Source of the DNA: an uncultured Bacteroidales bacterium
GTDB taxonomy: Bacteria; Bacteroidota; Bacteroidia; Bacteroidales; UBA12077
Assembly (NCBI GenBank): GCA_964504155.1
Contig: CAZDCZ010000005.1
Coordinates: forward strand, 1 to 53,114
Reading direction: 5' to 3'
Length of the DNA: 53,114 bases
The notes under the pieces were generated by a model. That model saw only the letters and a list, made by a program, of their open reading frames with translations, searched no databases and was not told the origin of the DNA. This document shows, one piece after another, positions 4,871-53,114 of this stretch. A program made the position numbers and the translations under genes. Each line of letters opens with the position of its first letter. Positions within the stretch are counted from its first letter, which is position 1.

Positions 4871-5422
4871 TTATAATGTACTTATATGTTTGCATAATTT
4901 CTCTTTTAACAAGTGTTTTGCACGTTGATATTGAGATTTTGATGTTGACTCAGAAATTCCTAACATATTCGAAATTTCTTTGTGCTTATAACCTTCAAGT
5001 AAATAAAGGTTTAGAACAACTCTTGCTTTTTCCGGAAGAGTTTTTATTGTTTTATGCACTATTGCAGGATCGATATTCGGAAAATCTTCATTTGTATCAT
5101 CATCTGAAACAATTTGCATGTCATCAATATCAGAAAACAAATATTTCTTCTTTCTCAAGAAGGTAATTGAGTTATTAATAACAATCCGTTTTAACCATAA
5201 TCCAAAAGATGAATCGCCACGAAAATTCTCTAAATTATTAAAAGCCTTAATAAATGATTCTTGTATAATATCTTCTGCATCGTAATGGTTAGAAACCATT
5301 CTAATACACGTATTATACATTGTCTGTACATATAATTTATACAGACGGTACATCGATTGCTGATTGCCTTTGCAAGCAGTTTCAATTAATTTTTCTTGTA
5401 TTTCAATAATATTTTTACCCAA
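4871..5422 (-). CDS. RNA polymerase ECF-type sigma-70 factor
   Basis: Region 2 'DAEDIIQESFIKAF...FGLWLKRIVIN'; region 4 'LPEKARVVLNLYLLEGYKHKEISNMLGISESTSKSQ'. Confidence 0.92.
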   Translation of the reverse strand: MGKNIIEIQEKLIETACKGNQQSMYRLYKLYVQTMYNTCIRMVSNHYDAEDIIQESFIKAFNNLENFRGDSSFGLWLKRIVINNSITFLRKKKYLFSDIDDMQIVSDDDTNEDFPNIDPAIVHKTIKTLPEKARVVLNLYLLEGYKHKEISNMLGISESTSKSQYQRAKHLLKEKLCKHISTL

Positions 5423-30470: not shown

Positions 30471-30666
30471 ATTAGTTGATAGAACAACTATATTTGTTAA
30501 GCTTTTTATTAAAAAATATTAATGAAAAAACAATTGTATATATTAATCCAAAAGTTGCCAGTAGGATTAATCGAAAAGTTACCAGTTTGAGACACAAAAA
30601 TACAATTATTTATCATGTCAATTGTTAGTTTTTGTTCAAACTCAGGTTTGATTTTTAAAAATCCCG

Positions 30667-30691
30667 CTAGCCCCGACATGTTGTCGGTGCT
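30667..30691 (+). repeat. REP hairpin upstream of the RAYT gene
   Basis: CTAGCCCCGACATGTTGTCGGTGCT; 20/25 to the copies at 31324 (reverse) and 53029, with a compensatory stem change. Confidence 0.75.
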
Positions 30692-30739
30692 TATTAACGG
30701 CAAATGTTCTGTGCTAAATACTTGTTGTTATTTTGATTT

Positions 30740-31302
30740 ATGTATGATAAATATAAGATAAGGATAAAGCATACTTTATAACAGTAATAACGGTTGGTTG
30801 GGTAGATGTATTTACTCGCCCAAATCATAAAAAACTTATAATTAATTCGTTGCAATATTGTATAAAGAATAAAGGCTTAATTGTTTTTGCCTATTGTTTA
30901 ATGCCAAGTCATTTACATACGATATGCAAGGCAGAAGGCAAAGTGTCTTTATCGGATGTTTTGCGCGATTTTAAGACATTCTCATCAAAAAATGTAATTA
31001 GTCAAATACAAGAAGAGCCCGAGAGCAGAAGAGAATTGATGTTAGAATATTTTTCAAAAGCATGTTTGCATCTGAAAAAAAAGCAAAATTATAAAGTTTG
31101 GTAAGATAGTAATCAGGCAAAAGAAATATTTAGCACTTCTTTTTTGTATTAGAAATTAGAATATATACATAATAATCCTGTTCAGGATTTAATAGTTGAA
31201 AAAGCAGAAGATTATTTATATAGTTCTGCAAGAAATTATGCAGAATTAGATAGTTTCTTCGATGTTTTTGTGCTAGATTATAAACCACTAATTCAAAATT
31301 AG
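30740..31302 (+). pseudogene. REP-associated tyrosine transposase (RAYT, HUH/Y1 family), disrupted
   Basis: 'AYFITVITVGWVDVFTR', HUH 'MPSHLH', 'LRDFKTFSSK', Y1 'KLEYIHNNPV', 'YLYSSARNY'. Frameshift near 30762; stops at 31102-31104 (TAA) and 31150-31152 (TAG). Confidence 0.88.
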
Positions 31303-31323
31303 AAATGATTGTTTTCTCCTGCT

Positions 31324-31348
31324 GGCACGGACAACATGTCCGCGCCAG
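31324..31348 (-). repeat. REP hairpin downstream of the RAYT gene (inverted relative to the upstream REP)
   Basis: Reverse complement CTGGCGCGGACATGTTGTCCGTGCC is identical (25/25) to 53029-53053. Confidence 0.85.
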
Positions 31349-31934
31349 GAGAAAGAGTCCTTTAACGGTATTACGTAAAGTGATGAGACTTTTTTTTTGC
31401 ACTCAGAAAAGGGTTCGAAAAAAATAGAAAGGTGTCAGCAATAAGCAAGTAGCTGTAATTGTTTCTGCCGACCGAAAAAACACAATAGATATAAATGTTG
31501 CTTGTTTAGGTAGAATTACAAAAGATAATATAATTCAGGCTATAGGAAATAAGGTTAAAGACAGAACAGTTTTGTGCACAGACGGTTATGTTAGCTATAA
31601 AGGATTTGCATTAGATAATTCAATTGAACATCGCGTATTAATAGCAGACTTAAAGCAATATGTAAAACAAAAGAAATATCACATTCAACATGTAAATTCA
31701 ATGCATAGCCGTATGAAAAATTAGATTGACAAGCAATTGCTTGGGTTTGCATCAAAATATTTACAGAATTATATTAATTGGTTTCATGTAAAAGAAAAAA
31801 TTACAGAATCTGAATTTATTGAAAGTATTATTGAATTAAGTGTTGCTAATACTAATGCAATAAAGGATTATAGAAGCATTGAAGAAAAGTATGCTAACTT
31901 GATGCATTTAGCATAGTTATTTTAAACTAGAGAC
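31349..31934 (+). mobile_element. IS1595-family remnant (3' half with right TIR)
   Basis: Near-identical to 35579-36201 except a 37-bp deletion between AGAAAGG repeats and a few SNPs; right TIR at 31915-31934. Confidence 0.9.
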
Positions 31935-32235
31935 AAGTATTCTTTTATATTTCTTTGAGCTAATCGCTCAATTTAGGTATTAATTTAAATTGTAAATATT
32001 CGCCAATGGATTTAGTGAAATTTCTAAAAGAAATTAAAAAGAATGATAATGAATTTTTTTTATAGATGATTTATGTAATGGTATTTGGAAAGTATTTTAT
32101 AGAATCGTATTTTTGGGATGCTTTAATGAAAATGAATTAAGAAATAAAGAAAAATCAATAAGGTTAGAAACTAATTTAGTGTAAAGTCTAATCTTTAACT
32201 TGTGTAAAGTATGTATTTTAACGAACATAGAAAAA

Positions 32236-34999: not shown

Positions 35000-35127
35000 C
35001 TACTGTTGGTAACACCTAAAAATATAAAAGTTCTGTAGAGTAAGGTTTACTGCAGATTTTATATTCAACAAAAAAAATAGTACATTTGGTGAATAGTGCT
35101 AAAAATGAAGATGATAGCAACTGTTAA

Positions 35128-36201
35128 GGCTCTAGTTTAAAATAACTGTGTTTATTTTATTTTTTTACAGAAAAAAGAAATGAAATCATCATCTATTCAA
35201 AAATATTTTGTGAGTTTAAATCCAGATGAACAGGATAATTTATTATCAGAACACCAAAATGTAAAAGACACGTCAAGCTACGGATTATTGGAAAGGCATG
35301 TAAAACAATTAGACAATAAGCAAGGCACATGTCATCATTGCGGAAGTTTGCGATATAAAAAGAATGATAAAGATAAAAAAATGTGTGAATTGTAATAGGT
35401 GTTTACTGCATACATTGGAACATGGTTGGTACATATCCATAAGAAGCATTTATTAATTCCATATTTGAAATTAATGAAGCAGGGACAGAGTCTCGATAAA
35501 ATAAAAACAGAATTACACATAAATAAAAAAACGGCTTTCGACTGGCGACACAAAATCAATGTGTCTATTGCTGATATTGAGAAAGAGTCCTTTAACGGTA
35601 TTACGTAAAGTGATGAGACTTTTTTTTTGCACTCAGAAAAGGGTTCGAAAAAAACAGAAAGGAAAGCAAGAAAAAGAGGAAAGTCTGTAAAAAGAAAGGT
35701 GTCAGCAATAAGCAAGTAGCTGTAATTGTTTCTGCCGACCGAAAAAACACAATAGATATAAATGTTGCTTGTTTAGGTAGAATTACAAAAGATAATATAA
35801 TTCAGGCTATAGGAAATAAGGTTAAAGACAGAACAGTTTTGTGCACAGACGGTTATGTTAGCTATAAAGGATTTGCATTAGATAATTCAATTGAACATCG
35901 CGTATTAAGAGCAGACTTACAGCAATATGTAAAACAAAAGAAATATCACATTCAACATGTAAATTCAATGCATAGCCGTATGAAAAATTAGATTGACAAG
36001 CAATTGCTTGGGTTTGCATCAAAATATTTACAGAATTATATTAATTGGTTTCATGTAAAAGAAAAAATTACAGAATCTGAATTTATTGAAAGTATTATTG
36101 AATTAAGTGTTGCTAATACTAATGCAATAAAGGATTATAGAAGCATTGAAGAAAAGTATGCTAGCTTGATGCATTTAGCATAGTTATTTTAAACTAGAGC
36201 C
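35128..36201 (+). mobile_element. IS1595-family insertion sequence, full length, transposase disrupted
   Basis: Perfect 20-bp TIRs GGCTCTAGTTTAAAATAACT (35128-35147) and its reverse complement (36182-36201). Zn-finger 'CHHCGS', 'SDETFF', 'LCTDG', 'YHIQHVNSMH'. Frameshift near 35380, TAA 35606-35608, TAG 35989-35991. No matching 8-bp flanks. Confidence 0.92.
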
Positions 36202-37038
36202 AACTCATATTATAATTGGTTAAAAGTTAAGGGTTTGGATAAAACAAAGCCTTCTAAAAAAATCCTTAAAGAAAGAATTAATGCGGTTTTTGAAGAAAGT
36301 CGAGAAATATATGGAAGTTATAGAATTCAAACAATGCTTGAAAGAGAGAATTTAATTTATTCACGATCATATATAGGCTTGCTAATGAAAGAAATGGGCT
36401 TAATAAGTATCCTAAAAAGAAAATTCGTAGTTACAACAGATTCAAAACATTCATTTCCAATAGCAAAAAACGAATTGGACAGAGACTTTACCAGTTTAGA
36501 ACTAGGTAAAAAATGGGTGTCTGATATTACTTATATACGCGTTAAAGATAACTAGAATTATCTTACAACCATAATGGATCTTGCTGACAGAAAAATGTAG
36601 GATGGGCTTTAAGTGAAGATATGACAACTAAGAATACCGTTATGAAGGCTTGGTTATCAGCTCGTCAAAACAGAAATATTATTGAAGGATTGTTTTTCAT
36701 TCAGATAGATGGGTGCAGTATGCTTCCAATAAAATGACAAGCCTTTTTTCTTATAATAAAAAAATAACACAAAATATGAGTAGAAAAGGAAACTGTTGGG
36801 ATAATGCTGTAGCTGAAAGCTTTTTTAAGACTATTAAACATGAATGGTTGTATCGATTTAAGTTTAACTCTTACAAGCAATTATATAGATCTATTGAAGA
36901 TTATATTACATGGTATAATACTAAAAGAATTTATTCTAGTTTAGGGTATTTATCTCCTTTAGAAATGGAAATTAAATTAAGAGAAATTATTAAGAAAGCG
37001 GCTTAGTAAAAATAGTCACAAATTTATTAGGTATTCCA
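36202..37038 (+). mobile_element. IS3-family remnant (orfB with stops/frameshifts, right end intact, left part lost)
   Basis: 'SYYNWL', 'YGSYRI', 'WVSDITYIR', 'SRKGNCWDNAVAESFFKTIK', 'WYNTKRIYSSLGYLSP'; ends ...GGTATTCCA at 37038 (TG...CA termini). Confidence 0.85.
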
Positions 37039-52336: not shown

Positions 52337-52522
52337 ATGAGTAATGCAAAAATATCCATACGTTTTTTTGACGACCGCGAAGTACGAGCCGTTTGGGACG
52401 AACAAAACGCCAAGTGGAGGTTTAGTGTGTTAGATATTGTAGCTTTACTTACCGACAAAGACGACTACACCAAAACCCGCAACTATTGGAAATATCTTAA
52501 AGCCAAATTGAAAAAAAATTAA
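52337..52522 (+). pseudogene. Truncated N-terminal (BRO-N-like) fragment of a Fic-family protein
   Basis: 'SIRFFDDREVRAVWDEQNAKWRFSVLDIV...DDYTKTRNYWKYLKAKLKK' resembles the N-terminus of Bacteroidota Fic proteins; it stops after 61 aa with no HPF motif. TAACTTTG promoter box at 52287-52294. Confidence 0.6.
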
Positions 52523-52638
52523 CAATTATTTTATTGGATAAATAATTGTATTTTTATCGTTCAAACTGGTACACTTTTCAATTATTATAGTGGGTGCTTT
52601 TCAATTAATAAATACAAATGGGATTTGATTGAAAAATA

Positions 52639-52980: not shown

Positions 52981-53028
52981 TTCATTAATTTATTAACAGG
53001 TCGTTGGTTTTGCTAAATAGTATTAACC

Positions 53029-53053
53029 CTGGCGCGGACATGTTGTCCGTGCC
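53029..53053 (+). repeat. REP hairpin, third copy
   Basis: Identical to the reverse complement of 31324-31348. Confidence 0.85.
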
Positions 53054-53059
53054 TTTATC

Positions 53060-53114
53060 GAAAACAATCATTTCTAATTTTGAATTAGTGGTTTATAATC
53101 TAGCACAAAAACAT
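53060..53114 (-). mobile_element. 3' end of a second RAYT copy, cut by the window edge
   Basis: 55/55 identical to the reverse complement of 31262-31316, including the RAYT stop codon (CTA at 53074-53076). Confidence 0.85.

Follow-up and report, generated by a model that had tools for sequence, protein, structure and literature searches.

The closest described relatives of the locus reported here are found among the TnpA-Y1 proteins, which were split into subclasses by Quentin et al. 2018 (BMC Genomics 19:475, PMC6006769). [quoted passage not shown] 2017. Proteins of this subclass have a mean length of 179 aa, carry the motifs NH[LIV]H, WQ and YIH[QN]NP as well as a C-terminal SS, and are described as 'mostly present in Bacteroidetes' (PMC6006769, Table 1). 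The corresponding genes occur at about 1.8 copies per genome with an intragenomic identity of about 41%, they are flanked by 'atypical' structures devoid of GT[AG]G, and the residues contacting GTAG are reported as not conserved in their products (PMC6006769). The subclass 2.6 hairpins listed in Table S1 of the same work originate from Aequorivita (A. sublithincola; GCTAGCGCGAGCGTCCCGCTCGTG and GCTGGCGCGGGCGTCCCGCCCGTG), Flexibacter litoralis (CTGGCGCAAGGTTCTACCTTGTGC and CTAGCGCAAGATTCTATCTTGTGC), Spirosoma (S. linguale; GCTGGCGCGAGCATATGCTCGTGCC), Zobellia (Z. galactanivorans; GCTAGCGCTCGTTTGTAACGAGTGCCGT) and F. johnsoniae (GCACGGATTGCAAATCCGCGC).

REPtrons are usually described as not transposing as a unit (PMC6006769), and group 5 RAYTs as being without a high duplication rate. 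Published RAYT experiments cover groups 2 and 3 only, to which the E. coli and Stenotrophomonas REPtrons belong (Ton-Hoang 2012, Messing 2012, Corneloup 2021). In the RAYTs studied so far, as in the IS200/IS605 transposases, an irregularity of the hairpin stem is a recognition feature (Corneloup 2021). In the GTAG/CGTC scheme of Di Nocera et al. 2013, Bacteroidetes are placed under CGTC repeats only, and neither CTAG nor GCTA appears in the main text. The RepRanger 2025 paper adds nothing on the REP class of subclass 2.6.

Anatomy of the locus

The window, that is the whole stretch of 53,114 nt that was analysed, constitutes contig C5 of a Bacteroidales genome of 2.9 Mb (29.5% G+C, 142 contigs). 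Its placement with uncultured Bacteroidales follows from a housekeeping protein, which is up to 89% identical to those of MAGs of Bacteroidales and Lentimicrobiaceae. The feature under study is very probably a decayed 'REPtron'-like unit, in which a Bacteroidota RAYT lies between two inverted REPs whose feet point outward; its assignment to subclass 2.6 (Bertels group 5) is based on motifs, length, host and hairpins. The features of the window are listed below, where R1 designates the covariance model built from 48 copies of the REP.

30660..30692, + strand: left REP (R1 44 bits, E 1.8e-9)
30667-30690, + strand: left 24-mer hairpin, CTAGCCCCGACATGTTGTCGGTGC
30693..30739, + strand: leader from the left REP to the start codon, about 40 nt shorter than in other copies (DNA alignment)
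30740..31308, + strand: RAYT (TnpA-REP, Y1/HUH) pseudogene (translation, NCBIfam, Pfam, comparison with homologues and copies)
31323..31355, - strand: right REP, inverted, with its core hairpin at 31325-31345 (R1 40.5 bits, E 1.5e-8)
31325-31348, - strand: right 24-mer hairpin, CTGGCGCGGACATGTTGTCCGTGC, inverted relative to the left one
31349..31936, + strand: remnant of an IS1595-like transposase, C-terminal DDE part with its own stop (Pfam DDE_Tnp_IS1595, E 2e-8)
53022..53114, - strand: part of another copy of the unit, reaching the contig end (blastn, 93% identity over 88 nt to 31262-31349)

The RAYT gene begins with an ATG at 30740, and its main frame is read from 30757 onward. A deletion of 7 nt around 30755/30756 introduces a frameshift just after the start. 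Two in-frame stops follow, a TAA at 31102-31104 in place of an ancestral Q and a TAG at 31150-31152 in place of an ancestral E. An otherwise invariant Trp is replaced by Leu (ESRRE-L-ML), and a TGG-to-TAG change at 31300-31302 (ancestral W) truncates the frame two codons ahead of the ancestral stop. Despite these lesions, SHLH (the HUH motif) and YIHNNP (the Tyr motif) can still be read. Judged by its reading frame, the copy is dead. An alternative genetic code or a programmed read-through at the in-frame TAA and TAG codons was considered and rejected because the neighbouring genes end normally on TAA and TAG, because the frameshift and the loss of the invariant Trp are present in addition, and because intact homologues hold Q and E at the positions of the stops.

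The initial annotation had described one REP on each side of tnpA, inverted relative to each other. Both were recovered at these places, with model matches on opposite strands and arms that are 83% complementary. The left REP consists of the foot CCCGCT-A and a hairpin at 30670-30690 (GCCCCGACA TGT TGTCGGTGC), and carries a C at stem position 3 where the REP family has G. Its end, …GTCGGTGCTTATTAACGGCA, also stands before other genomic copies of the window-type RAYT. The stems of the two REPs differ by a compensatory swap of C-G for G-C (CCGAC/GTCGG vs CGGAC/GTCCG). When folded as ssDNA, both hairpins display a 3-nt loop. The right one reaches -16.9 kcal/mol (z -6.9 vs shuffled controls) and the left one -7.1 kcal/mol (z -2.7), the latter being less stable because of a C/T mismatch peculiar to the window copy.

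The degenerate pattern CTRGCnCnGACATGTTGTCnGTGC has three matches in the window, where 0.00 were expected from 100 shuffles. The third match, at 53029-53052, belongs to the copy at the contig end. The right-end REP of that copy (53022-53054, R1 40.7 bits) is read on the + strand, and the - strand contains the final codons of a further RAYT gene copy. The right REP of the unit itself also gives a weaker R1 match on the + strand, at 31315-31347. As a side observation, the palindrome of this REP is extended in the window copy to 31315-31352 (38 nt); a GCTG resembling a foot is present on the inner side as well, in a 'double-foot'-like arrangement. The inner side of the right REP in other copies is an unrelated cgataaag, as seen upon alignment with the right ends on C95, C14 and C45.

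Copies of the unit in the host genome

The genome contains 13 RAYT protein matches, all of which are broken or truncated with the exception of a diverged paralogue on contig C35. Relatives of the same family and order show 0-4 matches each, their full-length copies being mostly intact, and they carry one or two intact copies together with REP arrays. No intact RAYT of the window type was found in the host genome; several copies run off contig ends, so one may exist. The close copies are mutually 80-97% identical, occupy different loci and have unrelated flanks, and the REP feet on either side mark the limits of the homology among them.

The lesions of the window gene recur among the window-type copies in a nested pattern. 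The 7-nt deletion is common to five copies (C5, C95, C20, C117 and C105), a TAG to four (C5, C95, C14 and C72), the TAA to three (C5, C95 and C14) and the Trp-to-Leu replacement to two (C5 and C95). Since these common lesions are nested and stand at different loci, REP-bounded units appear to have spread after the inactivation of the gene.

Shorter derivatives are present as well, in the form of 14 inverted REP doublets. Five of them, of about 235 bp, have in common one internal deletion that leaves the start codon and about 45 first codons of the RAYT; eight others, of about 117 bp, contain an AT-rich spacer only. Flanks are distinct in both groups. As an observation apart, the 235-bp doublets (C17:25976-26221, C91:5620-5869, C13, C79 and C114) hold a 21-nt in-frame insertion inside the RAYT remnant, CTGCCAGCCGGCAAGACAGGC, which forms a small palindrome and recalls the REP insertions within tnpA described for subclass 2.4.

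The doublets resemble REPINs (Bertels & Rainey 2011) in that two inverted REPs form the unit that is copied. A strict REPIN reading was nevertheless ruled out by the fold: in the 117-bp doublets the two REPs have unlike stems and the spacer is not self-complementary, and the predicted structure of a 118-nt doublet consists of two separate local hairpins instead of one long hairpin. The doublets are therefore closer to BIMEs than to strict REPINs.

The copies and doublets might owe their distribution to homologous recombination, segmental duplication or gene conversion, with no RAYT-catalysed transposition of dead units being involved. Decayed IS elements abound in the genome, rearrangements at REP edges are evident from the IS1595 junction at 31348/31349, and gene conversion between similar copies could spread lesions and could thus lie behind part of the common-lesion pattern. 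However, segmental duplication would bring flanking DNA along, whereas homology halts here at the REP feet, between flanks that are unrelated. New loci are not made by gene conversion either, and five loci hold one identical internal deletion. We regard a spread by recombination alone as very unlikely.

The transposition of REP-bounded units, the reading that we retain, implies that spread after gene death was driven in trans, presumably by a different RAYT, since lost or missing from the assembly. Its simplest form is that any DNA enclosed by two outward-facing REPs may be mobilised in this manner, like an insertion sequence (IS) accompanied by its MITEs. Because the 235-bp doublets keep about 45 RAYT codons and full units spread after successive inactivating mutations, it is conceivable, if still tentative, that in subclass 2.6 the complete REP-gene-REP unit of a REPtron is able to move, and that REP doublets arise from such units by internal deletion. 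If this is true, one genome would hold a natural intermediate between an IS-like ancestor and REP or REPIN populations. Comparison of the flanks gave no consistent signal for exact termini, target-site duplications, a cleavage dinucleotide or a target preference.

The spread of the unit in many copies goes against the usual accounts cited above, which concern both the immobility of REPtrons as units and the low duplication of group 5. The portrait of a single-copy, stable, domesticated gene without unit transposition does not apply to this genome. With its 13 matches, its close copies and its MITE-like deletion derivatives, it differs in this respect from subclass 2.6 as published. What is unusual is local, namely that the unit has multiplied unusually often after the death of its gene. 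The genome thus documents REP-bounded units, dead RAYT genes and deletion derivatives included, that multiply like an IS with MITEs, which bears on the question of RAYTs as domesticated genes or still-selfish elements and on the origin of REP doublets.

Identity of the transposase

The window protein was scored as a read-through translation with X at the stops. It passed the curated cut-off of NCBIfam NF047646 (REP-associated tyrosine transposase; REP_Tyr_transpos) with 90.6 bits for a threshold of 80, and failed the IS200/IS605 equivalog NF033573 with 21 bits for a threshold of 55. Pfam returned the generic Y1_Tnp ('Transposase IS200 like') alone. More than 4000 homologues of about 190 aa were retrieved, mostly from Bacteroidota, and many of them are named 'REP element-mobilizing transposase RayT'. 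Among solved structures, a profile built from 20 intact homologues matched E. coli TnpA-REP (4ER8) best, with E 1.9e-4, and ranked it above the IS200-type chains. These 20 proteins are 188-191 aa long, with the consensus motifs [S/N]H[LI]H, VWQD, YIH[NQ]NP and YxxSSARNY, and the HUH histidines, WQ and the Tyr of YIH[NQ]NP are invariant among them. On the strength of these sequence comparisons the window gene belongs with the RAYTs, not with the IS200/IS605 TnpA genes, which upholds the RAYT association put forward in the initial annotation. The features described for subclass 2.6 are found again: a Bacteroidota host, a protein of about 180-190 aa with [N/S]H[LIV]H, WQ, YIH[QN]NP and a C-terminal SS, and a gene flanked by hairpins without GT[AG]G, of which more copies exist elsewhere in the genome.

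The locus might also be taken for an ordinary IS200/IS605 insertion sequence, with the hairpins as its subterminal left and right ends and the doublets as its MITEs. Such elements have in common with the present unit a Y1 HUH fold, hairpin ends, decay in multiple and highly similar copies and short non-autonomous derivatives, and the Pfam assignment is compatible with them. The ends of IS200/IS605 elements are read on one strand, whereas the end hairpins are here mutually inverted and not co-oriented. No tnpB was found in the 680-bp unit, the two equivalog models separate the protein from the IS200 family, and the one or two intact copies with REP arrays seen in the relatives are REPtron-like. 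The initial annotation had reserved this explanation for the case of a protein grouping with IS200/IS605 TnpA and of hairpins confined to element ends. The scores of the protein do not support such a grouping; the hairpins come half-way to that description in spirit, as most of them end units or deletion derivatives which are bounded by REPs and behave like an IS with its MITEs. An IS200/IS605 origin of the whole is very unlikely in our opinion.

The identification as a RAYT with its own REPs is further supported by its homologues. The same covariance model detected 78 REPs in 24 homologue loci from other genomes, including Flavobacterium, Lutibacter, Aquimarina, Saccharicrinis, Kaistella, Fulvivirga, Rikenellaceae, Cytophagales and one Ignavibacteriaceae MAG. 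The outward polarity seen in the window is observed in 66 of the 78 (34 upstream on the strand of the gene, +, and 32 downstream on the - strand), the 12 others being opposite, and 16 of the 24 loci carry both an upstream and a downstream REP. In these genomes, 43-120 nt usually separate the start codon from the end of the closest upstream REP (48 nt in the window), and the nearest downstream REP usually begins within about 50 nt of the stop (20 nt in the window). The REP family of the unit has neither GTAG nor CGTC, is dispersed in its genome and is kept beside homologous RAYTs across Bacteroidota.

Homologues below roughly 50% identity mostly lack the GCTR-type REP class. The paralogue of contig C35 (C35:23100-24050), 47% identical, has an uninterrupted frame with ATA where homologues start with ATG. 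It is bracketed by inverted hairpins of the GTAG…CTAC type (ttcggcGTAGCTTTCAGCTACgtc), of which about 4-5 exist in the genome. This pairing fits the rule that each RAYT lineage possesses its own REPs. A doublet of the GCTR class was also noticed just downstream of the paralogue.

REP family

The genome-wide collection of hairpin matches proposed in the initial annotation was carried out by pattern and model scans. It yielded a family of about 60 dispersed copies (64 covariance-model matches), from which a consensus was derived: cc-N-G-C-T-R-GCGCGGAnnTGnnnTCCG-[T/G]-GC-y. Model matches numbered 0-11 in each of 40 relatives. Open frames of at least 120 aa make up 87% of the genome, and 55 of 58 REP copies lie outside such frames. 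About 44 matches adjoin no RAYT remnant, and hairpins are more numerous than genes.

The stem covariation first noticed between the two REPs of the window proved to be real. Across 47 distinct genomic copies, the swapped pair is G-C in 31 and C-G in 9, and two-sided changes affect 5 of 9 pairs, or 6 when R10-Y32 is counted. Paired cells amount to 93-95%, vs 25-50% when the partners are slid; the former percentage is inflated by the filter used to collect the copies, which demanded most inner pairs, while the compensatory types are unaffected. One position of the stem, 13/29, escapes canonical pairing: G·T is found there in 34 distinct copies, a non-standard pair (G·G where read) in 13 and a Watson-Crick pair in none. 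A G stands opposite a T at the same place in about 95% of the 78 REPs from other genomes. The protection of this irregularity makes the two strands of a REP unequal.

The 5' tag was originally read as CTAG/CTGG. These letters are present in both window copies as read, but the CTRG register is wrong, as R and G pair in the stem and T is the only letter of the foot that is invariant across genomes. In the alignment of the family, G7, C8 and T9 of the foot are conserved. About 80% of the copies have A or G at position 10, which covaries with position 32 (G-C 16, A-T 13, C-G 2, unpaired 15), and G11 is the first invariant base of the stem. Elsewhere in Bacteroidota the foot takes the form GCTR or GATA, the latter in Flavobacterium. 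With R and the next G assigned to the stem, G-[C/A]-T-R is the more apt notation for the tag, and the alignments place it immediately 5' of a 10-bp stem. By analogy with what is thought of GTAG, the foot may act as a guide.

The initial annotation had presented these hairpins as a REP class of its own, a novelty that is not established since the Bacteroidota RAYT subclass and its non-GTAG hairpins were already catalogued. The subclass 2.6 hairpins of Table S1 (PMC6006769), with GCTAG, GCTGG, CTAG or CTGG, CGCG…CGTG and a 3-nt loop, are of the same class, and the 21-mer GCACGGATTGCAAATCCGCGC of F. johnsoniae, once reverse-complemented, is identical to one REP core in the present genome. A supplementary table and one paragraph of that work thus already document the REP class, the absence of GTAG from it and its ties to a clade of Bacteroidota RAYTs. 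The description of the class has been sharpened here: the foot is G-[C/A]-T-R, the stem has 10 bp and an invariant G·T that is not a Watson-Crick pair, and the loop is a 3-nt TGY. This provides predictions ready for the first biochemistry on a subclass 2.6 enzyme.

The E. coli and Stenotrophomonas REPtrons are similar in several respects: an HUH/Tyr protein of monomer type, a gene bracketed by REPs, REP hairpins in which a 5' foot and an irregularity of the stem are conserved, and inverted extragenic doublets of BIME-like appearance. They differ by their foot, GTAG instead of G-[C/A]-T-R, by the nature of the irregularity, an AA/GC bulge instead of a single G·T (or G·G), and by a REP copy number in the hundreds compared with about 60 here.

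A primary role of the hairpins in terminating transcription or stabilising the mRNA of neighbouring genes, with the transposase beside them by chance, is extremely unlikely: they are extragenic, and such secondary REP roles are known in other bacteria (background in Quentin et al. 2018, PMC6006769), but no T-run follows the window hairpins, one of these stands upstream of the gene with its foot outward, the same family recurs with the same polarity beside RAYT homologues across the phylum, and neither a conserved foot nor a G·T mismatch is a terminator feature.

Proposed mechanism

The process by which a RAYT may mobilise REP-bounded units can be briefly outlined as follows, by analogy with the enzymes of E. 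coli and Stenotrophomonas. The intact protein would be an HUH/Tyr endonuclease-ligase acting on ssDNA. Its substrate would be the hairpin form of the REP, recognised on one strand only, with the 5' foot G-[C/A]-T and the non-Watson-Crick G·T position of the stem as marks of that strand. A cut beside the hairpin followed by rejoining would then allow the DNA bounded by REPs to move. Whole units, as well as derivatives with internal deletions, would in this manner have been copied to many sites after the inactivation of the gene.

Surrounding elements

The remnant of the IS1595-like transposase abuts the right REP without any spacer; it lies outside the RAYT unit and marks its right edge. It is 93% identical to positions 35579-36203 of the window, within a fuller decayed copy at 35.1-36.2 kb, and the homology starts exactly at 31349 = 35579. 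The missing 5' half of the IS1595 element was not found on the other side of the RAYT unit, which indicates a deletion or rearrangement at the REP edge and not a simple insertion. The use of this junction as a pair of empty and filled sites was consequently rejected.

A number of minor observations were made in the course of the analysis. The interval 35100-37010 of the window holds a second decayed IS1595-like element, whose N- and C-terminal parts are in different frames and which is directly followed by ORFs resembling the integrase part of IS3-type elements, the whole forming a cluster of dead mobile elements. In the left flank of the unit, a 21-nt tandem direct repeat is found at 30542-30586 (ATTAATCCAAAAGTTGCCAGT / ATTAATCGAAAAGTTACCAGT). 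Part of this flank, 30567-30660, recurs on contig C32 at 5055-5151 (93%), and 30531-30639 recurs more weakly at 52508-52620 of the window (76%). At the scale of the assembly, 18 of 58 REPs are located within 600 nt of a contig end, and this clustering points to REP-bounded units as a main cause of assembly breaks. Finally, two intact-looking Y1 transposase genes of another type are present at C4:22394-22870 and C46:22615-23046; they encode proteins of about 207-216 aa with 'AWCLMPNHFHLMV', and each is adjoined by an ORF whose N-terminus may be Cas1-like.
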